Positions 2,689 to 53,437 are shown, counted from the stretch's first letter. The stretch is 64,000 bases of DNA from Candidatus Woesearchaeota archaeon (GCA_016185755.1 JACPMX010000014.1:117868-181867), one strand, 5' to 3'. Translations and numbers: made by a program. Notes: a model not told the origin generated them from the letters alone.

Positions 2689-3300
2689 ATGTTCTATAAA
2701 ATAGAGTTAAAAGACCACATCAGGGTGCCTCCTAACCTGTTCAGCCTTCCGCTTGAGGAAGCTGTGATAAAGAGGATAAAGACCAAGTACAGCGGCTTTA
2801 TCTCAAAGGACCTCGGCATCGTAGTTGACGTGGCCGGAATGAAGGATATAGGGGAAGGTGTCATTATACCGGGAGACGGGGCTTCATACTATGATGTTTC
2901 GTTCGAGCTGCTGACTTTCAAGCCTGAAATGCAGGAAATAGCTATCGGCAGGGTAAAAGACATTGCTGAATTCGGCGCTTTCATAAACATAGGCCCTCTT
3001 GACGGCATGATACACATAAGCCAGACCATGGATGATTTTGTATCGTTCAGCAAGGACAAGACCCTGACCGGGAAGGAATCCAAGAGGGTGCTGAAGGTTG
3101 GCGACGTGTGCAGGGCAAGAATCATAGCAGTCTCGTTCAAGGATGTTTTGAACCCAAAGCTCGGCCTTACAATGAGGCAGCAGGGGCTCGGAAGGCTTGA
3201 CTGGATCAAGGAAGAGCCCGAGGAAAAAGAAGCTCCAAAGAAAGAGGAGAAAGAAGGCAAAGAGCATAAGGAGCACAAGGAAAAAAAGGAAAAGAAATAA
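2689..3300 (+). CDS. rpoE: DNA-directed RNA polymerase subunit E' (Rpo7) with S1 domain and K/E-rich tail
   Basis: 203 aa; Rpb7/RpoE N-domain plus S1 fold; conserved rpoE-spt4-rps24e-rps27ae context. Confidence 0.85.
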   Translation: MFYKIELKDHIRVPPNLFSLPLEEAVIKRIKTKYSGFISKDLGIVVDVAGMKDIGEGVIIPGDGASYYDVSFELLTFKPEMQEIAIGRVKDIAEFGAFINIGPLDGMIHISQTMDDFVSFSKDKTLTGKESKRVLKVGDVCRARIIAVSFKDVLNPKLGLTMRQQGLGRLDWIKEEPEEKEAPKKEEKEGKEHKEHKEKKEKK

Positions 3301-3306
3301 GCGAAA

Positions 3307-3492
3307 ATGAAAAAAAAAGTATGCAAGAGATGCAAGATGCTTGTTGACGGAAATGAATGCCCGGTTTGCAAGACCAACCAGTTCTCTACAAACTGGCAGG
3401 GCAGGCTTTACATTCTTGACTCCGGCAAGTCAATAGTCGCTGAGAAGATAGGCATCAAGGCCAAAGGCGAGTACGCTATAAAGGTAAGATAA
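3307..3492 (+). CDS. spt4: Transcription elongation factor Spt4 (RpoE'')
   Basis: 61 aa; CxxC...CxxC zinc ribbon; ends ...GEYAIKVR like archaeal Spt4. Confidence 0.8.
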   Translation: MKKKVCKRCKMLVDGNECPVCKTNQFSTNWQGRLYILDSGKSIVAEKIGIKAKGEYAIKVR

Positions 3493-8721: not shown

Positions 8722-10617
8722 GTGGAACAAGCACAATTGCAGGATAACATAAAAAAAGCCGGCATTCTGGACAAGATAGATTCTCCTAAGGACATTAAAC
8801 TTCTCAGCAGAAAGCAGCTCAAAATGCTCGCAAGCGAAATAAGGCAAAGAATCCTGGAAGTAGTCTCAAAGAACGGAGGCCATCTTGGAGGCCCTTTAGG
8901 CGCAGTTGAGCTGACTTTGGCGGTTCATTGCATTTACAATGCCCCCCATGACAAGATAGTCATAGACACAGGCCATCAAAGCTACCCCCACAAGCTGATA
9001 ACAGGAAGAAGGGACAATTTCCATACTTTAAGGCAGTACAAGGGAGTCTGCGGCTTCTGCAATATTGAGGAGTCGGAATACGATGTATTCGGCGCAGGCC
9101 ACGCATCAACTGCAATTTCAGCAGCCTTGGGCATAGCAAAGGCAAGGGACTATAAGAAGGAAAAATACAAGGTAGTCTCAATAATCGGGGACGGGGCATT
9201 GACAGCAGGCCTCGCTTTTGAAGGCTTGAACAACGCAGGCGCATCAAAGACAGACATGCTTATCATACTCAATGACAACAGGATGTCGATTTCTCCAAAT
9301 GTAGGCGCGATATCAAACTATCTGAACAAGATTGTGCTTCATTCAGGCTATTTTGAATTAAGAAAGAAAACTGGAAATTTGCTTAAAAAAATCCCCGGAA
9401 TAGGAAAAGAAGGTGTTGAAAAGCTTAGCAGGGCAGAGGGAAAATTAAGGGTGCTCGGCACAGATGGAATTTTCTTTGAAAGCATGGGATTCCAGTACTT
9501 TGGGCCCATCGATGGGCATAATTTGGATGAATTGATTCCCGCATTGCAGAATGTAAAAAATCTTGAAGGCCCTGTCCTGCTCCATGTAAAGACGGAAAAG
9601 GGAAAAGGCTACTCATTTGCGGAAAAGGACCTTGACAAGTTTCATGGCATGTCGCCCTTTGACCCTGTAAACGGAAGCAAATATGTCACAACAACCAAGA
9701 TGACATGGACTGATGCATTTGCAAACGCATTGATAAGGATTGCGGAAGAAGACGAAAAGATTGTTGCCATAACAGCTGCAATGAAATCAGGCACCGGGCT
9801 GAACAAGTTTGAGAAGCATTTTCCTGAAAGGACGATTGATGTCGGGATTGCAGAGCAGCATGCCGTGACTTTTGCGGCAGGATTGGCAATTGCTGGAATG
9901 AGGCCTGTGTGCGCAATATACTCCACATTTTTGCAGAGGGCATATGACCAAATCATTCATGATGTTTGCCTTCAGAACCTCAATGTAATCTTTGCGCTTG
10001 ACAGGGCTGGCCTAGTAGGAGATGATGGCCCAACCCACAATGGGCCTTTTGACATCGCTTATTTCAGGCCCATACCGAACATAACCATTATGGTTCCAAA
10101 AGACGAGAATGAGCTGCAGCACATGCTTTACACTGCAACTAAAATAAAAGGGCCGAGCGCATTGAGATATCCAAGGGGAAATGGAATCGGCGTTGGCCTT
10201 GATCCTGAATTAAGGAAGCTTGAAGTCGGAAAAGGGGAAATCCTACAGGAAGGAAAAGACCTGCTTATTATAGGAATAGGCCCCATTCTTTACGATGCAA
10301 TGCAGGCAATTGACGAGCTGAAATGCAGCGCAGCAGTAATCAACGCAAGATTTGTCAAGCCTCTTGATGAAAATATGATTTTGAAATATGCGCGAAAGTT
10401 CAGGAATATAATGACCCTTGAGGAAGGGGTTTTGAGCGGAGGGTTTGGCTCTGCTGTTATGGAATTGCTCGAAGGCAGCGGAATAAAATCAAATGTAAAA
10501 AGGATTGGCATTCCCGATAATTTCATCGAGCACGGAAAGCAGGACATACAGAAAAAACTGGCGGGAATTGACAAGGAGAGCGTAAAAATTGCCATTAGCA
10601 GTTTATTGGTCAAATAG
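8722..10617 (+). CDS. dxs: 1-deoxy-D-xylulose-5-phosphate synthase (GTG start)
   Basis: 631 aa; TPP-dependent transketolase-like; GDG...N ThDP motif; first MEP-pathway enzyme. Confidence 0.9.
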   Translation: MEQAQLQDNIKKAGILDKIDSPKDIKLLSRKQLKMLASEIRQRILEVVSKNGGHLGGPLGAVELTLAVHCIYNAPHDKIVIDTGHQSYPHKLITGRRDNFHTLRQYKGVCGFCNIEESEYDVFGAGHASTAISAALGIAKARDYKKEKYKVVSIIGDGALTAGLAFEGLNNAGASKTDMLIILNDNRMSISPNVGAISNYLNKIVLHSGYFELRKKTGNLLKKIPGIGKEGVEKLSRAEGKLRVLGTDGIFFESMGFQYFGPIDGHNLDELIPALQNVKNLEGPVLLHVKTEKGKGYSFAEKDLDKFHGMSPFDPVNGSKYVTTTKMTWTDAFANALIRIAEEDEKIVAITAAMKSGTGLNKFEKHFPERTIDVGIAEQHAVTFAAGLAIAGMRPVCAIYSTFLQRAYDQIIHDVCLQNLNVIFALDRAGLVGDDGPTHNGPFDIAYFRPIPNITIMVPKDENELQHMLYTATKIKGPSALRYPRGNGIGVGLDPELRKLEVGKGEILQEGKDLLIIGIGPILYDAMQAIDELKCSAAVINARFVKPLDENMILKYARKFRNIMTLEEGVLSGGFGSAVMELLEGSGIKSNVKRIGIPDNFIEHGKQDIQKKLAGIDKESVKIAISSLLVK

Positions 10618-10751
10618 TGATTTTTTAAAATTATTTTATTTAATGGCAAAAGAGCTTAATGCGATGGGAAAGATAGAAATAAATCAAATAAAACCTAAAT
10701 TTTACATTAACTAAAACATTCAAAAATTAAATATAGAATAAAAACCAAAAA

Positions 10752-11822
10752 ATGATCCAGAATAACATCGGAAGGAGAAAATCCCGCAAAGTAAAGGTCG
10801 GCAAACTGTTCATTGGCGGAGATGCTCCCATAACCATCCAGTCAATGACCACGACAGACACAACTGATGTAAAGGCAACAATTGAGCAGATTCATGGTTT
10901 GGAGGAAGTTGGATGCGACATCGTAAGGGTATCCGCTCCTACAATGGAGGCTGCAAAGGCGTTAAAGGAAATCAAGGAAAATATAAGCATTCCTCTTGTT
11001 GTTGACATTCATTTTGACTACAGGATTGCCCTTGAGGCTGTCAAGAATGTTGACAAGCTGAGGATTAACCCCGGCAATATTGGAAATCCTGACAAGGTGC
11101 AGCAGGTTGTAAAGGCGTGCAAAGATTTTCAAGTCCCGATGAGGATTGGAGTCAATCTGGGCTCTTTGGAAAGAGATTTGTTTGACAAATACGGCTATTC
11201 TTCGGAGGCAATGGTTGAAAGCGCAATGCGCCATGTGAAAATCCTTGAGGAGCTTGATTTTTATGACACGATCGTTTCTTTGAAAGCATCTGATGTGCCA
11301 AGAATGGTGAAGGCATACAAATTGTTTGCAGAAAAAACTGATTATCCCCTGCACCTTGGTGTTACAGAAGCAGGCTCAAAATTGCCAGGCGCCATAAAAT
11401 CATCTATGGGGATGGGAATGCTTTTGTCAGAAGGGATTGGAGACACTTTAAGGGTTTCATTGTCAGAGGATCCAAAAGAAGAAGTCAAGGTCGGAAAGCA
11501 AATTTTAAGGAGCCTTGGATTGAGGAATGATGGAGTGCAGGTCACATCCTGTCCAACGTGCGCAAGGACAGAGATAGATGTAATCAAGCTGGTCGAGCAG
11601 CTTGAGAACGCAACTGAAAAAATAAAAAAGCCGGTGCATGTCGCAATCATGGGCTGCGCAGTCAACGGGCCGGGGGAGTCAAGAAAATCAGACATCGGAA
11701 TTGTAGGCGCGCCAGGAAACCATCTGCTTTACAAAGACGGCAAGATTGTTAAGAGAATAAATGATGATGAAATTTACGAAGTTCTTTTGAAGGAGATTAA
11801 TGAGAAAGCAAATGAATCGTAA
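10752..11822 (+). CDS. ispG: 4-hydroxy-3-methylbut-2-enyl diphosphate synthase (GcpE)
   Basis: 356 aa; GcpE family with C-terminal Cys ligands (CPTCART, GCAVNGPGE). Confidence 0.9.
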   Translation: MIQNNIGRRKSRKVKVGKLFIGGDAPITIQSMTTTDTTDVKATIEQIHGLEEVGCDIVRVSAPTMEAAKALKEIKENISIPLVVDIHFDYRIALEAVKNVDKLRINPGNIGNPDKVQQVVKACKDFQVPMRIGVNLGSLERDLFDKYGYSSEAMVESAMRHVKILEELDFYDTIVSLKASDVPRMVKAYKLFAEKTDYPLHLGVTEAGSKLPGAIKSSMGMGMLLSEGIGDTLRVSLSEDPKEEVKVGKQILRSLGLRNDGVQVTSCPTCARTEIDVIKLVEQLENATEKIKKPVHVAIMGCAVNGPGESRKSDIGIVGAPGNHLLYKDGKIVKRINDDEIYEVLLKEINEKANES

Positions 11823-12519
11823 AATTATACTTTTTTTGATATTGACTGTTTTTTTGATAAATATTGGAAATTCATTCGCTAAATCAAACGAATATTATAC
11901 TTGCGAATATTTCAATTCTGGTTTATGTATAGAAGTTTGGTTTAATACATCAATAAGTAATTTAACTGATAAACCTAGCGAATATGGGAAATTTCCATAT
12001 TACACCCAACAAGGAGACTATTTGTATATAGAAAAATTCATCGCAATTAATCATGGGGAAAAAATAAATAGCAGCACTACTTATACTTTAGATATATGGC
12101 CATTAGAATACAAGGGCATGGATGAGAGATTAACAAAATATGGACCTTATACCAATAATTATGGTAAAATTGATATCGAAATTCCTCCTTTAGCTAAAGG
12201 AGACAAGTTTGAATTAGATTATTTACAAAATAGTGTTTATATCAAAAAATTAAATGATCAACCAATTGGTAAATATTCTCATTGGTTTATAGAACTTTAT
12301 AAAGAAGGAGAATGGTTCATCGACGAGGATATTGCAGGAGAAATTGGTGGATATACCTCTATTTTTAATGGATTTAGAAGTCGAATCTTTCAAGTCAACC
12401 CTCCATTAGAGTTAGAAACATTTAGCGATGTAAGAAAACAAGTTAAGTATATCCTTCCTACATTTTTAGTTTCTGTAATAAGTTTAATTGTTTCTATATA
12501 TAGTTTAAGAAGAAGATGA
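11800..12519 (+). CDS. Secreted or surface protein with N-terminal signal/TM and C-terminal TM anchor
   Basis: 239 aa; AT-rich codon usage clearly lower in GC than the flanking MEP genes; overlaps ispG by 23 nt. Confidence 0.45.
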   Translation: MRKQMNRKIILFLILTVFLINIGNSFAKSNEYYTCEYFNSGLCIEVWFNTSISNLTDKPSEYGKFPYYTQQGDYLYIEKFIAINHGEKINSSTTYTLDIWPLEYKGMDERLTKYGPYTNNYGKIDIEIPPLAKGDKFELDYLQNSVYIKKLNDQPIGKYSHWFIELYKEGEWFIDEDIAGEIGGYTSIFNGFRSRIFQVNPPLELETFSDVRKQVKYILPTFLVSVISLIVSIYSLRRR

Positions 12520-12521
12520 AA

Positions 12522-12836
12522 TCAATTCCTTACAATAACTTTCTTCCTCTTATTCAGCGGCTCTATAACCAAAGTGTCGAACAAGTCAATCATCTTTCTG
12601 ACGAAAGGGCTTGATGTATTCAGCTTGTATAGCTTTGCATTGCCGATGTTCCTTGTTGGCTTTATTATCCCAAGCTCGACAAAATCGCTCCAAATCCTAA
12701 ATAAAGTGGTTCTTCCGATGCCGGCTCCCTCTGCAATGTCTGAAATAGAATAATCTAGCTCCCTGCCTTCTATCAAAAATTCCAAAACCTTGATTTTTGG
12801 TGTGTTATCAAAAATCTTAACCAATTTTGTCGTCAT
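12522..12836 (-). CDS. Winged-helix DNA-binding transcriptional regulator
   Basis: 104 aa; SISDIAEGAGIGRTTLFRIW helix-turn-helix segment. Confidence 0.5.
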   Translation of the reverse strand: MTTKLVKIFDNTPKIKVLEFLIEGRELDYSISDIAEGAGIGRTTLFRIWSDFVELGIIKPTRNIGNAKLYKLNTSSPFVRKMIDLFDTLVIEPLNKRKKVIVRN

Positions 12837-13043
12837 AGTATTATCTACTATTGGGAATATTCAAATATTTCTATTTTGCAAAGTATATTTCTGAGTATCA
12901 CTGGCCACTGGACATGGCTACGTGAACTATATAAATCAATAGATTTAACGCATTTAAAAAATAAAAGCCGCACAACTTGGCGGTACGGAAGCTTCAGAAC
13001 CTCAATAAATATGCTGGGCTATCAAGTATTTAAATTTTACTAT

Positions 13044-13156
13044 GCCGCGGTCGCATAACTTGGAAGTGCGGGAGCTTCAGAACCTCCTGTCCGAAAGGGC
13101 ATCTGGGTTCAAATCCTAAAAGGATTTGCTTTTGGGTGGAAATCCCAGCCGCGGCG
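13044..13156 (+). tRNA. tRNA-Leu(CAG), class II, with ~29-nt non-canonical intron in the T-loop
   Basis: Acceptor GCCGCGG/CCGCGGC; D arm CGCA/TGCG; anticodon stem-loop GGAGC-TTCAGAA-CCTCC; long variable arm GTCC-GAAA-GGGC. T arm is CTGGG-TTCAAAT...CCCAG, interrupted by TAAAAGGATTTGCTTTTGGGTGGAAATCC, whose own ends are complementary (GGATTT/AAATCC). Confidence 0.6.
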
Positions 13157-13236
13157 CTTATGTTCTACAAAAACTGCCTTTGCATTCAAAGGAAAGATTT
13201 ATAATCCAACTAAATGATACTTGCCTTGGGGGTTAC

Positions 13237-14400
13237 ATGAAACATCTATCCATTTTGGGAAGCACTGGCAGCATTGGCACCCAGACTCTTGATATTGCAA
13301 GGCAATTTCCGAATGAATTCAAGATCGTTGGACTGACTGCAAACAGGAATTCTGAATTGCTGTTAAAGCAGATAAAAGAATTCAAGCCAAAAGCTGTTGC
13401 GATAATGGACAAAAGCAAGGTTGATGATTTATTGAATTTTTCCTCGTGCCAGGTTTATTCAGGAATTGAAGGATTAAACAGGATTGCTTCATTGAGTGAA
13501 GCAGATACTGTTGTAAATGCACTGGTTGGAAGCATAGGAATCGAGCCGACGCACAATGCAATAAAATCAGGAAAAAACATTGCGCTTGCAAACAAGGAAA
13601 CGCTTGTGGCAGCAGGCTCCGTCATTATGGACGAAGTTAAGAAAAATAATGTGAATTTGATGCCGATTGATTCAGAGCATTCCGCAATTTTCCAGTGCCT
13701 CAATGGAGAAAATATAAAGGAAGTCAGCAAAATTACAATAACCTGTTCAGGAGGCCCGTTCAGGAACCATTCAAGAGAGCAAATGGAAAATGTTTCTTTG
13801 AAAGATGCACTGAAGCACCCGACATGGAACATGGGCAGCAAAATAACAATTGACTCTGCAACTTTGATGAACAAGGGATTTGAAGTCATTGAGGCGCATT
13901 GGCTGTATGATATGGACTATGAAAAGATAAAAGTCATAATCCATCCCCAAAGCATAGTCCATTCTTTGGTTGAATTTGTTGACCATTCGGTAATTGCGCA
14001 ATTGGGACTGCCGGACATGAAAATACCGATCCAATACGCATTGACCTATCCAAAGAGATTCCAAAATCTAAGCGCCCCATTGGACTTGGCAAAAATAAAA
14101 GCTCTTGAGTTCAGCGAGCCTGACTTTGAAAAGTTTCCATGCCTGAAATTTGCATATGAAGCCGGAGCAATCGGGGGGACTTTGCCTGCTGTCATGAACG
14201 CAGCAAATGAAATTGCAGTTCATGCATTCCTTGGGAATAAAATAAGGTTTTTGGACATACAAAGGCTTGTAAGAAAGCTGATGGACGGGCACAATTTGAT
14301 AAAAAGCCCCAGCCTTGGCAATATTCTTGAGACTGACAAAAAGACTAAAGAAGAAACATCTAAAATCATTGAAGAGGAGATTAGCATAAAGAATCAATAA
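13237..14400 (+). CDS. dxr: 1-deoxy-D-xylulose-5-phosphate reductoisomerase
   Basis: Starts MKHLSILGSTGSIGTQTLD (NADPH-binding motif); the supplied ORF begins earlier inside the tRNA. Confidence 0.9.
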   Translation: MKHLSILGSTGSIGTQTLDIARQFPNEFKIVGLTANRNSELLLKQIKEFKPKAVAIMDKSKVDDLLNFSSCQVYSGIEGLNRIASLSEADTVVNALVGSIGIEPTHNAIKSGKNIALANKETLVAAGSVIMDEVKKNNVNLMPIDSEHSAIFQCLNGENIKEVSKITITCSGGPFRNHSREQMENVSLKDALKHPTWNMGSKITIDSATLMNKGFEVIEAHWLYDMDYEKIKVIIHPQSIVHSLVEFVDHSVIAQLGLPDMKIPIQYALTYPKRFQNLSAPLDLAKIKALEFSEPDFEKFPCLKFAYEAGAIGGTLPAVMNAANEIAVHAFLGNKIRFLDIQRLVRKLMDGHNLIKSPSLGNILETDKKTKEETSKIIEEEISIKNQ

Positions 14401-14409
14401 TTTCTAAAA

Positions 14410-15591
14410 ATGAACTTTGCAATAATAGTTGCTGCGGGAAAGGGCAGGAGGATGGGAAAAAATGCAAACAAAGTTTTTTTGCCCCTGATGAGCAGGCCGA
14501 TGATTTGGCATGTTCTGGATATTTTCCACAGTTGCGGGAAAATCGATGAGATTATTGTAGTGGCTCAAAAGAGCGATTTTGAAAAAATCAGAGGGATTAA
14601 AAGCGAATACGGATTTGATAAAATAAAAAAAATTGTTGCAGGAGGAGAAGAAAGGCAGGATTCTGTCTATAACGGGCTGATGTCAATAAAGGCAAAAGAA
14701 GATGACATTGTCTTGGTACATAACGGAAGCAACCCTTTAGTCCTTGAAAATGAAATTGATGAATGCATCAATGCCGCAATAAAGTTTGATGCTGCTGTTG
14801 CAGGATTTCCGCTGAAAGACACAATCAAAAAGGCAAGCGGTGATTTTGTGGAAAAGACAGTAGACAGAAAAGACATTTTCCAAGTGCAAACGCCCCAGGC
14901 TGTGAAATACGGATTATTTGCTGAAGCATTCAAAAACGCCAAAAAGAAAAAACTTAAAGCAACCGATGATGTTTCCCTTGTCGAGGCACTTGGCAGGAAA
15001 GTAAAGATTGTCCGATGCTCTTATGAAAATATAAAAGTAACCACGCAGGACGACCTGAGAATTGCAGAGGGAATTTTGATGAGCAGGAATAAAACGAATA
15101 AGGATTCTAAGATTGGATTTGGGCATGACAGCCACAGGTTTTCAGCAAGCAGGAGCAGAAAGCTTGTTTTAGGAGGGTATATCATGCCTAATGAAACCGG
15201 GCTGGAGGCAAACTCTGACGGAGACCTTATTTTGCATGCCTTGTTCAACGCGATAAGCTCTGCAATCGGCATGAAGTCCCTTGGACACTATGCGGACCCT
15301 ATGCTTGAAAAAGGGGTTACTGACAGCAAGGAATATCTTCAGGTTATCCTAAAAAAATTAAACGAAAAAAACATGGGAATAAACAACATAAGCATTTCAA
15401 TTGAGGCAAAAAGGCCGAGGCTTGATGACAGCACTGACAAGATCATTCAATCTTTATCAAAAATACTGGCAATAAGCAAGGAAAGAATAGGGATTACCTG
15501 CACTTCAGGGGAGGGGCTGACGCCTTTTGGAAGAGGCGAAGGAATGCAGTGCTTTGCTGTTGTTTCTTTATGCTCTAGTCCCAATCAATAA
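14410..15591 (+). CDS. ispDF: Bifunctional IspD/IspF (MEP cytidylyltransferase + MEcPP synthase)
   Basis: 393 aa; N-terminal IIVAAGKGRRMG (IspD) and C-terminal GFGHDSHRF (IspF). Confidence 0.9.
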   Translation: MNFAIIVAAGKGRRMGKNANKVFLPLMSRPMIWHVLDIFHSCGKIDEIIVVAQKSDFEKIRGIKSEYGFDKIKKIVAGGEERQDSVYNGLMSIKAKEDDIVLVHNGSNPLVLENEIDECINAAIKFDAAVAGFPLKDTIKKASGDFVEKTVDRKDIFQVQTPQAVKYGLFAEAFKNAKKKKLKATDDVSLVEALGRKVKIVRCSYENIKVTTQDDLRIAEGILMSRNKTNKDSKIGFGHDSHRFSASRSRKLVLGGYIMPNETGLEANSDGDLILHALFNAISSAIGMKSLGHYADPMLEKGVTDSKEYLQVILKKLNEKNMGINNISISIEAKRPRLDDSTDKIIQSLSKILAISKERIGITCTSGEGLTPFGRGEGMQCFAVVSLCSSPNQ

Positions 15592-16419
15592 ATTATTGAA
15601 CGGGGATACATTTGGGTGATAAAGTCTTACAATTCTTGCGTTATAACCCATTGCCTTCAGATTTTCAGCCCTCACATAGTCAATTATTTCCATGGCTTTT
15701 CTTGCTACCGGGCGATATCCATCAGACTGTTGCATATGCCCTACTGCTCTTGCTAAGACGGTAAATAATTTTTCACTTAGCTTTATCCCTGAAGCTAAGG
15801 TCGACATGTCAAAATCCATTTGCCCGTGATGGCATGGTACAACAGCAAATAAATCCGGCAAACTGCTTTGTAATTGGGCGTACCTGCCAATTAAATCGGG
15901 AAGGCTTCCACAGCAATATAAGCCAAGATATGCCACTTTACCATCTGCGCGAAGTATTTCGGGTGATGGTTTTTTGTCTCTTAGTGTTGCCAAATCGAAT
16001 TTGACAAATGGAATATCATATTTCCGAATACATGGGAAGTATCTTTCAAGCAAATAGCTCCTAGGGAACCTAACGTCAACTCTTGTTACAGGTGCCCCAG
16101 CAAGGTGAGCGATTGCATAAGCCAAGAAACTTTTGCCAGAGCACCAATCAACATAATTAACATCAGGCTCCAGAAAACCGGCATTATCGATTTCACTCAG
16201 TAATGGCTTCAATATCCCCAACTTTATTTTATGGACAGTTGTTTTTTGTTCTCTAGCGAGGCTATCCACTCCCTCTTGGAGATGAGAATCCTCAAATAGC
16301 TTTTCTACCCTTTTTGAAGGTTTTGTTTCCTGCAACTCTTCACCAATTTTCCATCTTTCATGCAAACCACTGATTAGCTTGATTCTTTCTTCCAATACTT
16401 GGGATTTAGACATACTCAT
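15568..16419 (-). CDS. Putative SAM-dependent methyltransferase (Methyltransf_32-like)
   Basis: 283 aa; VDWCSGKSFLAYAIA motif-I-like segment and conserved Cys/His cluster. Antisense to the MEP genes and overlaps the ispDF 3' end by 24 nt. Confidence 0.45.
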   Translation of the reverse strand: MSMSKSQVLEERIKLISGLHERWKIGEELQETKPSKRVEKLFEDSHLQEGVDSLAREQKTTVHKIKLGILKPLLSEIDNAGFLEPDVNYVDWCSGKSFLAYAIAHLAGAPVTRVDVRFPRSYLLERYFPCIRKYDIPFVKFDLATLRDKKPSPEILRADGKVAYLGLYCCGSLPDLIGRYAQLQSSLPDLFAVVPCHHGQMDFDMSTLASGIKLSEKLFTVLARAVGHMQQSDGYRPVARKAMEIIDYVRAENLKAMGYNARIVRLYHPNVSPFNNLLIGTRA

Positions 16420-16499
16420 AAGAACTATGAGTCATTTAAAAAGTTTATGAACCCCAAAAATTAGCAAAGATTATATATGAAAATAATAATCTATATGTT

Positions 16500-17348
16500 A
16501 TGGCAATAAGCTCATACGCAAAAGTCAACCTTTACCTGAAGATAGGCAAGAAGCTCGGCTCAGGCTACCACAACATACAGTCAGTTATGCAGAAGATAGA
16601 GCTGAGCGACAGCATATCCATAGAGCCGATAAACGAGGATAAAATAATAGTGGAATCCACAAACAAGGAGCTTGAAAACGAGAACAATCTCGCCTACAAG
16701 GTTGCCATGCTTCTCAAGAAGAAATTCAAGGTAAGGCACGGAGTCAAAATTTTCATAGAGAAAAACGTGCCTCTTGAAGCAGGCTTAGGAGGGGGCTCAA
16801 GCAATGCAGCAACTGTCCTGATGAGCCTCAACAAGCTGTGGGGCCTTAAGCTCAAGGAAAAGCAGCTTATAGGGCTTGCTGCCCAGATTGGCTCTGACGT
16901 GCCTTTCTTCATTGGCGATAACGCAGCTCTCGTGGAGGGAATCGGCGACAGGATAAAGCGCATAAGGAAGTCGTTCAGCATCAATATAGTCCTCATAAAC
17001 CCGGGCTTCAGGGTCTCGACAAAATGGGCATATTCAGCTTTTGACAGGCAAAAACCAAAGATAAAGGCAAATGCCGATATTAAAAATCTGGTGAAGGCCA
17101 TAGAAAAAAAAGACATAAAAGAGATAGCAAGCAACCTGCACAATGATTTTGAGACTATTGTGACCAAAAAATACAAGGTGATAAACGACATCAGGACAAA
17201 TCTCCTCAGAAACGATGCCCTGAATGCCTGCGTCTCTGGCTCCGGTCCCACTGTCTTCGGCATCTTCAACAGCATCTATGAGGCAAGAGAAGCCTTTTTC
17301 AAGATTCAGTATGATTACCCGTTCGTGTTTTTGACAAAGACTATATAA
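16500..17348 (+). CDS. ispE: 4-diphosphocytidyl-2-C-methyl-D-erythritol kinase
   Basis: 282 aa; GHMP kinase motif PLEAGLGGGSSNAA. Confidence 0.85.
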   Translation: MAISSYAKVNLYLKIGKKLGSGYHNIQSVMQKIELSDSISIEPINEDKIIVESTNKELENENNLAYKVAMLLKKKFKVRHGVKIFIEKNVPLEAGLGGGSSNAATVLMSLNKLWGLKLKEKQLIGLAAQIGSDVPFFIGDNAALVEGIGDRIKRIRKSFSINIVLINPGFRVSTKWAYSAFDRQKPKIKANADIKNLVKAIEKKDIKEIASNLHNDFETIVTKKYKVINDIRTNLLRNDALNACVSGSGPTVFGIFNSIYEAREAFFKIQYDYPFVFLTKTI

Positions 17349-17454
17349 AGAAAATAAGCCATGATTATATGGGGGCTGTTCATTTTTTTTGGTTTGAAAT
17401 ATTTTTATTGGGCATGCCCTACTGGTCAAGGCAAGAATAACAAAAACATAAAAA

Positions 17455-18378
17455 ATGGTCGACATAAAAGTTGCAAGGCACGCAGGCTTCTGCTTTGGAG
17501 TGAAGAAAGCCATAGAGATTGCAGAGGAAGTGGCGCAAAGCAATCCTGAAAGCACATACGTGCTGGGCCAGCTTGTGCACAACGAGAAAGTCATAAAGAC
17601 GCTTGAAGGCAAGGGGATCATTTTTGTAGAGGATATTCATGAAATTCCGCAGAATGCAATAACTGTTTTAAGGGCCCATGGAGAGCCCGGAACAACTTAC
17701 GAAATTCTTGGGCAAAAGTCAATAACAAAAGGCAAAAACCTGAACGATGCGACATGCCCCCTTGTCACTTTGGTGCATAATGTTGCAATCAAACTGAAGA
17801 GCAATGGCTATGAAGTCATAATCTTCGGCAAGCACAACCATCCCGAGGCAATAGGCACAAGCTACCATCTCAGGGGAAATGGAACTTTCATTGTAGAGCA
17901 TGAGGATGACTACCGGCAGGTCATTGACCACATCAAAAACAATAATTTTGGAAAAATAGCAATAATCTCCCAGACAACAATGTCAGTTCTTGGATATAAA
18001 AAGCTGATTGAAAATATAAATTCTAATTTTGGCAATAAATTTATTGAAATCCCGCTTGCGCTGAAAAACCTTGATGTGAAGTACGGCTTTGTGGATACAA
18101 TCTGCAACCCCACAAAGCAGCGCCAATCCGATATTGACGAGCTTGCCGGTGACCGCGACATGATCATAGTCATTGGGGGCAAAAACTCAAGCAACTCAAA
18201 GGAGCTTTATGCAAAGGCAAAAGAATACGGGATAGACTCATATTTCATCCAGTCGGCAGAGCAGATCCAAAAAGAATGGCTTAATGGAAAGCAAAGGATT
18301 GGAGTGACAGCGGGAGCCTCAACTCCTGATTACCTGATTGATGAGGCTGTTGAAAGGATAAAAGAAATCACTCGCTGA
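17455..18378 (+). CDS. ispH: 4-hydroxy-3-methylbut-2-enyl diphosphate reductase (LytB)
   Basis: 307 aa; LytB family with conserved Cys near N-terminus, middle and C-terminus. Confidence 0.9.
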   Translation: MVDIKVARHAGFCFGVKKAIEIAEEVAQSNPESTYVLGQLVHNEKVIKTLEGKGIIFVEDIHEIPQNAITVLRAHGEPGTTYEILGQKSITKGKNLNDATCPLVTLVHNVAIKLKSNGYEVIIFGKHNHPEAIGTSYHLRGNGTFIVEHEDDYRQVIDHIKNNNFGKIAIISQTTMSVLGYKKLIENINSNFGNKFIEIPLALKNLDVKYGFVDTICNPTKQRQSDIDELAGDRDMIIVIGGKNSSNSKELYAKAKEYGIDSYFIQSAEQIQKEWLNGKQRIGVTAGASTPDYLIDEAVERIKEITR

Positions 18379-19426: not shown

Positions 19427-19515
19427 TAGCCCCGGGCAGATTCGAACTGCCGTCAGAGCCTTTCCATTGCACTGCAACCAAAGGGCCCTATGCTTGACCG
19501 CTACACCACGGGGCT
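19427..19515 (-). tRNA. tRNA-Gln(UUG) with 16-nt canonical (37/38) intron
   Basis: Minus-strand acceptor AGCCCCG/CGGGGCT; anticodon stem-loop GGGCC-CUUUGG[intron TTGCAGTGCAATGGAA]A-GGCTC; T arm GGCAG-TTCGAAT-CTGCC; discriminator A. Confidence 0.6.
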
Positions 19516-19610
19516 GCATTCAGGGAATTCCCTGTTTTGTATATAAAAGTTGTTGTTGAAGTAAATAAAAAAATTAATAAATAACACCCAACCCCAAAAA
19601 TGGGATTAAT

Positions 19611-36534: not shown

Positions 36535-36640
36535 CGCGCCGGGGAGGATTCGAATTCGGGATGAAAGAGCAGTTACTCGATCATGCCCCCGGCCTAGAGG
36601 TTAGGAACCTCTCGCTCTATCCAAGCTGAGCTACCGGCGC
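36535..36640 (-). tRNA. tRNA-Arg(CCU) with ~31-nt non-canonical intron in the T-arm
   Basis: Minus-strand acceptor GCGCCGG/CCGGCGC; D arm GCTC/GAGC; anticodon stem-loop AGAGG-TTCCTAA-CCTCT. T stem GGGGG/CCTCC is interrupted by CATGATCGAGTAACTGCTCTTTCATCCCGAA before TTCGAAT; discriminator G. Confidence 0.6.
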
Positions 36641-46827: not shown

Positions 46828-48780
46828 ATGCTTGAATATGTTATTGGAGTCGGCATATCTTCCTTGCTTGCTGCAGTGTTGTTTTCATTCTATATCCTTA
46901 AAAAGCCAACTGGAACAGCCAAAATGCAGGAAATTTCCGAGGCAATACACAAGGGTGCACTTACCTTCTTAAGAAAAGAGTATGAAGTCATAGCAGTTTT
47001 TATTGCTGTTGTGGCATTGATAATGTATGTATTCCTTGAGAACGGCCACAGGCTTGCGGTATCTTTCATCATGGGCGGATTTGCGTCTGCGCTGGCCGGC
47101 AACCTTGGAATGAGGATATCAACAAAATCGAATGCAAGGGCGGCAGAGGCAACAAAATCCCATATAGGGGATGGCCTGAAAGTTGCCTTCTATTCCGGCG
47201 CCGTAATGGGCTTAAGCGTTGTAGGAATAGGCTTGCTCGGAGTTTCAATTTTGTATTTGGTTTTTGACGATCCGAGTATAATATACGGCTTTGGGTTCGG
47301 GGCCTCCTCAATTGCCCTGTTTGCAAGGGTTGGCGGCGGAATTTATACAAAAGCAGCCGATGTCGGAAGTGATTTGGTCGGCAAGGTTGAAAAAGGAATT
47401 CCCGAAGACGACCCAAGAAACCCTGCAGTCATAGCAGACAATGTAGGCGACAATGTGGGGGATGTTGCAGGCATGGGCGCCGACCTCTTTGAAAGCTATG
47501 TGAACAGCATAATAGCGGCAATGGTGATCGGGCTTGTCTTAAGCCAAGGCCACTTAATTTTTCCGCTGGGCCTTGCAGCGTCAGGTATTTTGGCGTCAAT
47601 AATCGGCATGTTTTTTGTAAAGGCAAAGGATGAGAAACATCTTTTTAGGGCATTGAACACAGGTCTGTATACAAGCACAGTTTTGGCTGCGATATTCGCA
47701 TTTATTCTTGTCAAGCACCAGGATCTTGGCATCGGAGTTTTCTACGCAACCTTGTCCGGGTTGATTGTAGGTGTTGTAATAGGCTGGATTACGGAATATT
47801 ACACATCGAACCGCAACAGGCCGACACAAAGCATAGCAATAGCTGCAAAAACAGGGGCTGGAACAAATGTGATACAGGGGCTTGCTGTCGGCATGCTTTC
47901 TACATTAATTCCGGTTGTTTCGGTTTCGATGGCGGTTCTTGTCGCTTACAAGTTTGCTGGTCTTTACGGGATTGCAATTGCAGGAGTGGGCATGCTCACA
48001 ACCCTTGGATTTACTTTGGCAATTGAAACTTATGGCGCTGTTGCCGACAATGCGGCAGGAATTTCGGAAATGGCCGACGTTGGAAAAGATGTGAGGAAAA
48101 AAACCGAAATGCTTGATGCAGTAGGCAACACGACAGCTGCAATAGGGAAAGGATTTGCAATGGGCAGCGCTGCATTGACTGCTCTTGCTCTTTTTGCCAG
48201 CTTCACCCAGATCACGAAAATTGAGGTCATAAGCATTTCAGACCCCAATGTAATTTTTGGGTTATTCATAGGCGGAATGCTTCCTTTCCTGTTCAGCTCT
48301 TTTGCAATGCAGGCTGTCGGAAAAGCGGCGTCAGAGATAGTTGAGGAAGTAAGAAGGCAGTGGAAATCCATAAAAGGATTGGCGCAGGGAAAAGCAAAGC
48401 CTGACTATGAGAAATGCATCGCAATAAGCACCAGAAGCGCCTTGAAGCAGATGACAATTCCTTCCATTCTTGCAATTCTTGCTCCGATACTGATTGGATA
48501 TTTATTCGGTCTCGAAGCCCTTGGAGGCCTGCTTGTCGGCTCGATTGTATCGGGATTTTCGCTTGCGGTTTTCATGGCCAACTCCGGAGGAGCATGGGAC
48601 AATGCGAAGAAATACATAGAGGCTGGAAACCTTGGTGGCAAAGGAAGTTACGCCCACAAGGCCGCTGTTGTAGGAGACACAGTTGGGGACCCGTTCAAGG
48701 ACACAGCAGGGCCTTCATTGAACATATTAATCAAGCTGATGTCCATTGTTGCGATTGTGTTTGTGCCGCTGATTTTATAA
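46828..48780 (+). CDS. hppA: Membrane-bound H+/Na+-translocating pyrophosphatase, predicted K+-dependent type
   Basis: 650 aa; [10 protein letters not shown] motif (Ala at the K+-dependence position); DVGADL and DNVGDNVGD motifs. Confidence 0.9.
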
Positions 48781-51358: not shown

Positions 51359-53437
51359 TTGTTGATGTTCCTAAGCATTGTTATTGTTATAAGTGTTTTG
51401 GCATTGCTGTTTGCAGGCTATCTGGCAAGAGGAGTTCTTAGGAGAGATACCGGAACAGCTGCAATGCAGGAAGTTTCTAATGCAATCAAGATAGGCGCAG
51501 AGGCATTCCTGAAAAGGCAGTACACCACAATAGCGATAATGTCGGCAGCCCTTGCTGTCATCATATATGCCGCTTATGCGTTATTTGGCAATCCGGGCCT
51601 TGGATGGCGCACATCAGTCTCATTTGTCTTTGGAGCAATCAGCTCGGGAATCGCAGGCATTGTGGGCATGTGGATTTCAATAAGGACAAACATCAGGACT
51701 GCAAGCGCTGCAAGAAAAAGCATGAATGACGCTTTTGTAACAGCGTTCAGGGGAGGGGCGGTTTCCGGCATCGTGATAGTTGCGATGTCATTGCTTGGAG
51801 TCGCGCTGATATATTATGTGTTCAGCATCGGCGTTGATCCTAAGGAAGTTCCTTTCCTGATTGTAGGATATGGATTTGGAGCTTCATTTGTAGCTTTGTT
51901 CGCCCAGCTTGGCGGCGGAATTTATACAAAAGCAGCCGATGTCGGAAGTGATTTAGTCGGCAAGATTGAAAAAGGAATTCCCGAAGACGACCCAAGAAAC
52001 CCGGCAGTCATAGCAGACCTTGTCGGAGACAATGTGGGGGATTGTGCTGGCAGGGGCGCTGACCTATTCGAAAGCACAGCTGCTGAAAATATAGGTGCAA
52101 TGATACTTGGTGTTGCCCTCTATCCCATTTTCGGAGTAAAAGGAGTTATGTTCCCTCTTGTTGTAAGGGCATTTGGGCTTGTAGCAACAATAATCGGAAT
52201 AATGACCGTCAAGCTCAGAAACGAAAATGAAAACCCGATGACAGCATTGAACAGGGGATACTACATAACCAGCTTCCTTGCAGCAATTGTATTTTACTTC
52301 ACTACAAAATGGCTTCTCCCAGGCACGGGAAACTGGTTTTTCTTTGCCGGCTTGGTTGGGCTGGCAACGAGCATTTTGATTGTGTGGATAACAGTTTATT
52401 ATACTGAATCAGACCCGTTCTTTTTTAAAAACAGCCCTGTAAGAAAAATTGCAAAAGCATCATTGACAGGTCATGCAACCAACATAATTTCAGGATTTGC
52501 AGTAGCAATGGAAGCAACTGTGCTGCCCGTGATTGTCTTATCATTGGCGCTTCTTTCCTCGTACAAGCTCGGATTGATGAGCGGCGTTGCGCATGGCGGC
52601 TTATACGGAACTGCAATCGCAACAATGGGAATGCTTGCAACAGCAGCTTACATCCTTGCAATGGACAATTTCGGCCCGATAACAGACAATGCCGGCGGAA
52701 TTGCCGTTATGGGCGGGGCTCCAAATGAGGTAAGGAAAAGAACAGACAAGCTTGATGCTGTCGGCAACACAACAAAGGCATTGACAAAAGGCTATGCCAT
52801 AGGAAGCGCCGCATTAGCTGCATTCCTGCTGTTCTCAGCCTATCTTGATGACGTTGCAAAGCATATTGGGGTAAAGGTTGTTTCAGTTGACATTGCAAAA
52901 ATTGATGTATTTGTAGGGGCTTTGATAGGCGCAATGCTTATTTTCCTTTTCAGCGCGTTTGCCATAAGGGCTGTGGGAGACACAGCTTACTCAATAGTAA
53001 ATGAAGTAAGAAGGCAGTGGAAAGCCAAAAAAGGGATAATGACCGGCAAGGAAAAGCCCGACTATGCAAGAGTTGTTGACATTTGCGTCAAGGCTTCTCT
53101 CAAGGAGATGGTTTTGCCCGGATTGGTTGTTGTTGCGGTCACAGTAATTGTTGGAGTTGTCTTGGGATATGAAGCTGCAGCTGCATTTTTGATGGTTGCC
53201 ACAATCACAGGCATTTTGATGGCCCTTCTTCTTAACACAGGCGGAGGAGCATGGGACAATGCGAAGAAGCTCATTGAGGAAGGCGAGCACGGCGGAAAAG
53301 GTTCAGATGCGCACAAGGCAGCTGTCACAGGCGACACAATCGGAGACCCTTTCAAGGACACTGCAGGGCCTTCATTGCACGTTTTGATTAAGCTGTTGAG
53401 CACTATAACTTTGGTTCTTGTGCCGCTGTTTGTGTGA
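51359..53437 (+). CDS. hppA: Membrane-bound pyrophosphatase paralogue, predicted K+-independent type
   Basis: 692 aa; GNTTKALTKG (Lys at the K+-dependence position). Confidence 0.9.
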   Translation: MLMFLSIVIVISVLALLFAGYLARGVLRRDTGTAAMQEVSNAIKIGAEAFLKRQYTTIAIMSAALAVIIYAAYALFGNPGLGWRTSVSFVFGAISSGIAGIVGMWISIRTNIRTASAARKSMNDAFVTAFRGGAVSGIVIVAMSLLGVALIYYVFSIGVDPKEVPFLIVGYGFGASFVALFAQLGGGIYTKAADVGSDLVGKIEKGIPEDDPRNPAVIADLVGDNVGDCAGRGADLFESTAAENIGAMILGVALYPIFGVKGVMFPLVVRAFGLVATIIGIMTVKLRNENENPMTALNRGYYITSFLAAIVFYFTTKWLLPGTGNWFFFAGLVGLATSILIVWITVYYTESDPFFFKNSPVRKIAKASLTGHATNIISGFAVAMEATVLPVIVLSLALLSSYKLGLMSGVAHGGLYGTAIATMGMLATAAYILAMDNFGPITDNAGGIAVMGGAPNEVRKRTDKLDAVGNTTKALTKGYAIGSAALAAFLLFSAYLDDVAKHIGVKVVSVDIAKIDVFVGALIGAMLIFLFSAFAIRAVGDTAYSIVNEVRRQWKAKKGIMTGKEKPDYARVVDICVKASLKEMVLPGLVVVAVTVIVGVVLGYEAAAAFLMVATITGILMALLLNTGGGAWDNAKKLIEEGEHGGKGSDAHKAAVTGDTIGDPFKDTAGPSLHVLIKLLSTITLVLVPLFV

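Follow-up and report, generated by a model that had tools for sequence, protein, structure and literature searches.

Protein-spliced tRNA introns are normal in Archaea, and the archaeal splicing endonuclease EndA cleaves after the second nucleotide of each bulge of the BHB motif. Besides the canonical site, introns at non-canonical positions, including 20/21, 45/46, 53/54, 56/57, 59/60 and others, have been catalogued in the Thermoproteales, in other Crenarchaeota and in the Nanoarchaeota (PMC4090602). In the DPANN superphylum, a survey that included a Woesearchaeota genome found increased disruption of tRNA genes and incomplete predicted tRNA sets, together with linked variants of EndA (PMC5829648). 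The EndA variants of this superphylum include the epsilon2 enzyme of ARMAN and alpha4 enzymes with an L3 loop (PMC3239211, PMC5829648).

Here we describe an interrupted tRNA gene at positions 13044-13156 (plus strand) of a stretch of DNA of 64,000 nucleotides, which is referred to as the window throughout. The host is a Woesearchaeota (DPANN) archaeon. The window encodes a number of archaeal hallmarks, i.e. GatD/GatE, subunits of the A-type ATP synthase, CDC48 and an ATP-dependent DNA ligase, and the Dxr encoded beside the tRNA matches, with 100% identity, an NCBI protein that bears the name 'Candidatus Woesearchaeota archaeon', as do its relatives at about 80% identity. Since the host is archaeal, an endonuclease-spliced tRNA intron is expected rather than surprising. 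The gene encodes a class II tRNA with the anticodon CAG, the T-loop of which is interrupted by 29 extra bases. In our assessment it is highly probable that this is a functional intron-containing Woesearchaeota tRNA gene, spliced through a BHB motif at tRNA position 59/60 and most probably serving as a reader of CUG as leucine.

An initial annotation of the locus had proposed a tRNA-Leu(CAG) with a BHB-like intron in the T-loop, bounded by a GGATTT/AAATCC pairing and representing a genuine trait of the lineage. The kind of feature proposed there, a BHB intron at about 59/60 that is characteristic of the lineage, is borne out by the present analysis, whereas the helix that was thought to define the intron is not, and the leucine label has to be qualified. 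As archaeal introns go, this one is ordinary, a new example of a documented site. By itself it teaches little new, and the residual interest of the locus lies in a tRNA that combines a leucine anticodon with G73 and A37, and in the apparently co-evolving half-copy beside it. Two orthologues of the gene, referred to below as L081 and L082, were used for comparison.

The interrupted gene and its predicted splice structure

The interrupted tRNA gene is confirmed, and its parts are listed in Table 1. Read from 5' to 3', the gene is laid out as GCCGCGG TC GCAT AACTTGGAA GTGC G GGAGC TTCAGAA CCTCC TGTCCGAAAGGGCAT CTGGG TTCAAATCC TAAAAGGATTTGCTTTTGGGTGGAAATCC CAG CCGCGGC G. It carries the universal tRNA nucleotides U8, A14, G18G19, A21, U33, U54U55C56 and A58 as well as the pair G53-C61, and its long variable arm assigns it to class II. 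The interruption of about 29 nt inside the T-loop reads as it was first described. The initial annotation had staked its intron on an excision that leaves a 5-bp T stem with a 7-nt loop, and removal of the 29 nt gives precisely this arrangement, CTGGG-TTCAAAT-CCCAG, with the loop TTCAAAT and the G53-C61 pair. When applied to the spliced sequence, ARAGORN reports a tRNA-Leu(cag) of 85 nt. The raw gene, on the other hand, was detected neither by ARAGORN in a search of the whole window nor by Rfam at the gathering and E-value thresholds. With the gene missed by standard finders, genomes of this clade would appear to be without a CUG reader; recognition of the intron at 59/60 fixes the annotation.

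Table 1. Coordinates of the interrupted tRNA gene, its predicted splice structure and the elements upstream of it (positions in the window)
Feature	Position	Strand	Evidence or remark
Degenerate copy of the tRNA 5' half, about tRNA nt 9-43	12966-13004	+	35-nt direct repeat; a function may or may not exist
TATA-like box TATTTAAAT, -17 to -9 from the tRNA 5' end	13027-13035	.	sequence
5' exon (tRNA positions 1-59), from the acceptor 5' strand through the D, anticodon and variable arms and the T-stem 5' strand to T-loop nt 54-59 (TTCAAA)	13044-13113	+	sequence, ARAGORN cloverleaf of spliced gene, BHB
Acceptor stem GCCGCGG / CCGCGGC	13044-13050 / 13149-13155	+	
D arm with A14, G18, G19, A21	13053-13069	+	
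Anticodon arm	13071-13087	+	
Anticodon-stem closing positions C31 and C39, unpaired	13075, 13083	+	mismatch kept in L081 and L082
Anticodon CAG in loop TTCAGAA; A37 at 13081	13078-13080	+	sequence, ARAGORN
Variable arm, 15 nt: U, 4-bp stem GTCC/GGGC, GAAA loop, AU	13088-13102	+	ARAGORN
T-stem 5' strand CTGGG, the BHB outer helix (h); partner 13144-13148	13103-13107	+	
Central 4-bp helix, 5' strand TTCA, T-loop nt 54-57; partner 13137-13140	13108-13111	+	
5' bulge AA/T; predicted cut 13113/13114	13112-13114	+	BHB geometry
BHB intron, 29 nt, tRNA position 59/60, TCCTAAAAGGATTTGCTTTTGGGTGGAAA	13114-13142	+	strict hBHBh' scan, orthologues, shuffles
Inner hairpin (h') CCTAAAAG / CTTTTGGG, 8 bp, loop GATTTG	13115-13136	+	
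Central 4-bp helix, 3' strand TGGA, intronic	13137-13140	+	
3' bulge AA/T; predicted cut 13142/13143	13141-13143	+	BHB geometry
3' exon, tRNA positions 60-73: T60, CCCAG, CCGCGGC, discriminator G; CCA not encoded	13143-13156	+	
T-stem 3' strand CCCAG, the outer helix partner	13144-13148	+	
Discriminator G73, atypical for a leucine tRNA	13156	+	identical in L081 and L082

The exact boundaries of the intron require some care. The hexamer AAATCC is present twice, on either side of the insert (13111-13116 and 13140-13145), and therefore seven excision registers (56/57 to 62/63) yield an identical mature sequence, the register given initially, 13117-13145, being one of the seven. ARAGORN is a weak test of exact boundaries, as it accepted many alternative excisions of the Arg and Gln tRNA genes in the window (see below); hence, we relied on BHB geometry and the canonical T loop instead.

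A strict hBHBh' motif is present at the gene, with an outer helix of 5 bp, a central helix of 4 bp (one of them a G·U pair), two bulges of the sequence AAT and an inner helix of 8 bp, and it places at 59/60 the intron that had first been located near 58-60. The two strands of the inner helix (13115-13122 and 13129-13136) are paired in both the MFE and the centroid folds of the pre-tRNA, the fold of which beats all 200 shuffles (z = -3.96), and a BHB as good as the observed one arose in 12 of 200,000 shuffles of the 29 nt. When both strands of the whole window were scanned for strict BHB geometry, 6679 candidates were found, and only at this locus did a tRNA span the junction after excision. 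There are two excision candidates at the locus, the 29-nt intron and a weaker 23-nt variant that leaves a 13-nt T loop.

It had been suggested that the splice structure is the pairing of GGATTT with AAATCC. If this helix set the splice sites, the intron would be 13117-13145, at position 62/63; its GGATTT (13122-13127) is complementary to both copies of AAATCC, the hairpin CAAATCC-TAAAA-GGATTTG turns up in a terminator-like scan and in sub-threshold Rfam matches, and the register yields the same mature sequence. We nevertheless regard this reading as extremely improbable, because the pairing does not flank the junctions with 3-nt bulges spaced by 4 bp, appears in neither the MFE nor the centroid fold, both of which contain CCTAAAAG/CTTTTGGG instead, and is not conserved, L082 having TTCAAATTTCAGG... 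without GGATTT and the intron of L081 being different. Furthermore, the pairing cannot coexist with the BHB, which covaries across the orthologues. Within the BHB, GGATTTG (13122-13128) sits at the top of the inner hairpin, where it contributes to the closing pair and makes up the apical loop, while the 3' copy of AAATCC runs from the last part of the central helix through the 3' bulge into the T stem. The AAATCC...AAATCC repeat, which had been taken for part of a flanking helix, reflects the two-fold pseudo-symmetry of the BHB instead.

We attach a negligible probability to the insert being a group I or group II self-splicing intron, a CRISPR repeat or a terminator. Although group I introns occur in tRNA genes of archaea and Patescibacteria (PMC6125680, PMC13011429), 29 nt is far below the size of a ribozyme intron. 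CRISPR-DR63 is matched weakly in Rfam (23.6 bits, the gathering threshold being 37; E = 0.4), but the 36-nt stretch is single-copy in the window, where no repeat array is present. A terminator-like hairpin was called at 13110-13128; the insert lies within a tRNA cloverleaf. The Rfam matches to CRISPR-DR63 and mir-4520 are both sub-threshold and fall on the alternative hairpin; they were rejected, the sequence being single-copy.

Given a BHB intron at 59/60, established knowledge of archaeal tRNA splicing predicts how the transcript would be processed. In the primary transcript, three helices, i.e. the T stem, the 4-bp helix between T-loop and intron and the 8-bp hairpin of the intron, would be stacked on one another, with the two 3-nt bulges (AAT and AAT) lying on opposite strands between them. 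EndA would cut at the two sites given in Table 1, after the second nucleotide of each bulge, thereby releasing the 29-nt intron and leaving ends with a 2',3'-cyclic phosphate and a 5'-OH; the exon ends would be sealed by the ligase RtcB, and CCA, which is not encoded, would be added after ligation. The predicted product is a class II tRNA of 84 nt with the canonical T arm and the anticodon CAG. Judging from splicing systems already understood, a strict hBHBh' motif should suit any type of EndA. Of the 30 ORFs scanned in the 64-kb window, none was recognised as encoding EndA or RtcB.

Other tRNA genes in the window are interrupted as well. The gene for tRNA-Arg(CCT) at 36535-36640 (minus strand; Rfam 42.4 bits) has a 31-nt insert where the T stem meets the T-loop, between positions 53 and 54, with a central helix CGGG/CCCG, an inner helix ATGA/TCAT and no outer helix, which amounts to a relaxed BHB; to judge from this structure, its removal would need a broad-specificity endonuclease. 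The tRNA gene at 19427-19516 (minus strand), with A1-U72, A73 and an insert of about 16 nt in the anticodon loop, is reported by ARAGORN with a 4-base anticodon, and is best read as an archaeal tRNA-Gln(UUG) gene with an intron at the canonical position. In relatives, the Gln gene adjoins a LAGLIDADG endonuclease ORF (L094, about 17286-17400).

Conservation in other lineages and genomic setting

A pattern scan of JGI metagenomes returned the two orthologues L081 and L082, plus a chance match, L083, which lies inside a coding region; scans of viral contigs gave no match. The two orthologues come from unrelated metagenomes and independent assemblies. Their exons are 88% (L081) and 85% (L082) identical to those of the window gene, the range across the three lineages being 81-88%, and their introns, of 32 and 35 nt, occupy the same 59/60 site as the 29-nt intron of the window. 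The central helix and both AAT bulges are common to all three genes and the inner helices differ; outside the motif the three introns are unalignable, and the geometry of helices and bulges is kept.

On the three-way alignment, the combined cloverleaf and BHB structure is 99% paired, and displacing the partners by 1-3 columns lowers this figure to 43-50%. In four pairs both partners change; one of these belongs to the D stem, two to the stem of the variable arm and one to the intron helix. In addition, the U·G pair of the central helix becomes U-A in L081, and all six comparable pairs of the inner helix vary among the three genes and all six stay paired. This covariation comes from three sequences only, and its statistics are weak; 6-7 of 500 shuffles reach the observed values, so that the shuffles are no more than a moderately strong control. 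RNAalifold alone favours another pairing for the anticodon-arm region. Even so, structure that is kept across unalignable introns is what one expects to see when selection acts on a BHB intron. The earlier view that the interruption is a lineage trait and not an artefact accords with the orthologues in two other assemblies and with the 53/54 insert of the tRNA-Arg gene at 36535-36640. In L081 (3383-3499), the BHB register gives G53·U61 rather than the near-universal G53-C61, and a register two bases further restores C61 but misfits the bulges.

These data also bear on the question of whether the locus could be a dead tRNA-Leu pseudogene from which the 29-nt insertion is never removed. A dead gene would fit with the standard finders making no call, with the atypical identity positions, with the decayed partial copy that adjoins the gene, and with the location of the gene in an insertion that relatives lack. 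We consider it very improbable, however, in view of the exon identity across three lineages with its compensatory stem changes, of the perfect BHB that is kept despite differing intron sequences and lengths, and of the heavy use of CUG codons (see below).

The context of the gene differs in each genome, since it lies between ispG and dxr in the window, between purE and purC in L082, and between prs and proS in L081. In the window, the tRNA gene and a 239-aa ORF make up a 1.4-kb insertion between ispG and dxr (11823-13236) that is absent from most relatives; the ORF (11800-12519) has a signal peptide or TM segment and no Pfam match. The genes ispG and dxr abut or nearly so in most related loci (L001, L006, L007, L009 and L094), and other insertions are found at the junction in L004, L008 and L013. 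No tRNA-Leu was found beside dxr, either in 13 loci of Woesearchaeota or in the P0027 neighbourhoods, and the purE-purC spacer is empty in relatives, as seen in a synteny search via PurC of L082.

Several other features of the window are worth recording. At 8722-18378, this archaeon encodes the whole of a bacterial-type MEP pathway for isoprenoids (dxs, ispG, dxr, ispDF, ispE and ispH); the pathway has already been described for DPANN and Woesearchaeota (PMC8204110, PMC8421398). Within the MEP cluster, on the opposite strand, a 283-aa ORF (15568-16419, minus strand) resembles TRM13, a family of tRNA 2'-O-methyltransferases, at a score of 23.9 bits, which is below the cut-off of 26. Moreover, two paralogous membrane-bound pyrophosphatases, of the sodium- or proton-translocating types, are encoded within 5 kb of each other (46828-48780 and 51359-53437, plus strand), beside the A-type ATP synthase operon.

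Probable leucine identity and the decoding of CUG

Readers of CUN codons usually have G37. In the window gene, L081 and L082, position 37 is A, the discriminator is G73, and positions 31 and 39 are unpaired, with C·C in the window gene and L081 and U·C in L082. As these three peculiarities are common to the three genes, they are under selection and are not errors. G73 is the discriminator typical of serine tRNAs. According to a review of tRNA identity, recognition as leucine depends chiefly on A73 in Bacteria, Archaea and Eukarya; in Haloferax, the G73 of tRNASer acts as an antideterminant that blocks LeuRS, and the change of A73 to G73 alone makes human tRNALeu a serine acceptor (PMC9976931). 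Of the features that mark a leucine acceptor, the gene has the anticodon CAG and the class II arm and lacks A73, and for want of the latter it cannot be filed as a standard tRNA-Leu. The label given initially thus derives from the anticodon only, and G73 and A37 run counter to the known rule for leucine identity.

The use of CTG codons points clearly to leucine. In dxr, each of the eight CTG codons occupies a column of leucine or of hydrophobic residues, and at two of these sites leucine is present in all 67 bacterial and all 13 Woesearchaeota homologues, the latter encoding it by TTA, CTA, CTT or TTG. Likewise, the CTG codons in purC of L082 stand at conserved leucine positions. In 21 genes of the window, CTG accounts for 222 of 924 leucine codons (24%), and CTA for 21 of 924. 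CUG is a major leucine codon that needs a dedicated reader. Reassignment of CUG to serine was considered and was discarded on the strength of the codon positions in dxr and purC. No other class II tRNAs of the clade were found in the approximately 250 kb of Woesearchaeota DNA searched. The simplest reading of these sequences is that the tRNA(CAG) serves as the CUG-leucine reader and would be leucylated by a LeuRS of this clade that accepts G73.

It is unlikely, in our view, that SerRS charges the same spliced tRNA, alone or alongside LeuRS, so that CUG would be ambiguous or the tRNA would have a role outside bulk translation, with CUG being read by another tRNA, either a UAG tRNA or a second CAG gene with A73. 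Charging by SerRS would agree with the G73, A37, G1-C72 and G30-C40 of the tRNA, with the conservation of G73, A37 and the 31·39 mismatch in three orthologues, and with the fact that only 64 kb of the genome is visible and a second CUG reader may be encoded elsewhere. It would also agree with the switch from leucine to serine identity that A73-to-G73 causes in several systems, and with the block of the Haloferax LeuRS (PMC9976931). However, serine would be harmful at the invariant leucines of dxr and purC where CTG, with its 24% share of leucine codons, is used, and the rarity of CTA argues against a dominant UAG reader. Among class II tRNAs, a short variable arm ending in U and an A15:U48 pair are the more leucine-like state, and the tRNA has a short variable arm (15 nt with a 4-bp stem) that ends in U, and A15:U48. 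Returning to the tRNA as a reader of CUG as leucine, a tRNA with G73 and A37 in this role would, if true, be a natural exception to the A73 rule and of interest for the study of tRNA identity.

The upstream half-copy and comparison with known systems

The gene is preceded, at a distance of 40 nt, by a degenerate copy of its own 5' half, which forms with it a direct repeat of 35 nt at 86% identity (12969-13003 versus 13052-13086) and includes an exact 14-nt copy of the anticodon arm, AGCTTCAGAACCTC. The same arrangement is found in L082 (6151-6245). The upstream copies match the tRNA of their own lineage better than that of the other (scores of 50 versus 30, and 54 versus 34), and the distal parts of the upstream elements of the window and L082 are homologous to each other; taken together, these two observations suggest that half-copy and tRNA gene co-evolve, by gene conversion or by selection for matching. 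A search for further tRNA fragments in 12520-12965 gave nothing above shuffles. Origin of the upstream repeat as an att site is unlikely, as the repeats are imperfect and 83 nt apart and no integrase is nearby.

The TATA-like box is too close to the gene to serve the tRNA, and judging from its sequence may drive a divergent short transcript. Read on the minus strand, it matches the archaeal TATA consensus perfectly, as TTTAAATA in both the window and L082 and as TTTATATA in L081. On the minus strand of all three loci, an A-rich stretch and the TATA box stand beside the tRNA 5' end, pointing away from it, and are followed by about 45 nt, a GC hairpin with compensatory changes and a T-run (the hairpin is at 12967-12984 in the window; the L081 element is at 3300-3382). 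This unit may encode a divergent RNA of about 50 nt. At two of the loci, those of the window and L082 but not that of L081, such a transcript would be antisense to the D and anticodon arms of the tRNA (nt 10-42 or so).

A broader reading of the locus is possible and is offered tentatively, as we hold it to be somewhat improbable in its entirety. An essential CUG-leucine reader with G73, A37 and an open 31·39 pair would imply that the LeuRS of this clade dropped an A73 rule that is universal elsewhere or that the tRNA is dually charged; in addition, the gene would move from one genomic context to another together with a co-evolving half-copy element and a minus-strand unit of about 50 nt laid out from promoter to terminator.

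Sequence resembling a tRNA 5' half near a tRNA gene brings to mind the split and tri-split tRNAs of Caldivirga and of Nanoarchaeum equitans, a relative within the DPANN. Unlike split tRNAs, the window gene is contiguous and complete. Nor is the half-copy one half of a split gene, being without a usable acceptor strand or a complementary leader.

The tRNA further shares its class II structure, its anticodon CAG and its discriminator G73 with the tRNA-Ser(CAG) of the CTG-clade yeasts. In those yeasts, however, CUG was purged from conserved leucine sites and is read as serine, whereas in the window CUG is abundant at invariant leucines; the resemblance is a lead only.

As regards the disrupted tRNA genes of other DPANN archaea, the present gene belongs to the same superphylum, but its strict BHB would need no broad-specificity enzyme. 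The closest match is to the catalogued archaeal BHB introns, with which the intron shares the hBHBh' motif, the 59/60 position, a similar size and, by inference, processing by EndA and RtcB, and which likewise cause ordinary tRNA finders to miss genes. The window thus provides a mesophilic DPANN example, supported in three lineages, of a phenomenon described mostly in Crenarchaeota. The intron differs from the catalogued ones in that its host is a mesophilic member of the Woesearchaeota and not a crenarchaeon, and in that its motif is strict and not relaxed; the mechanism expected for it is no different.
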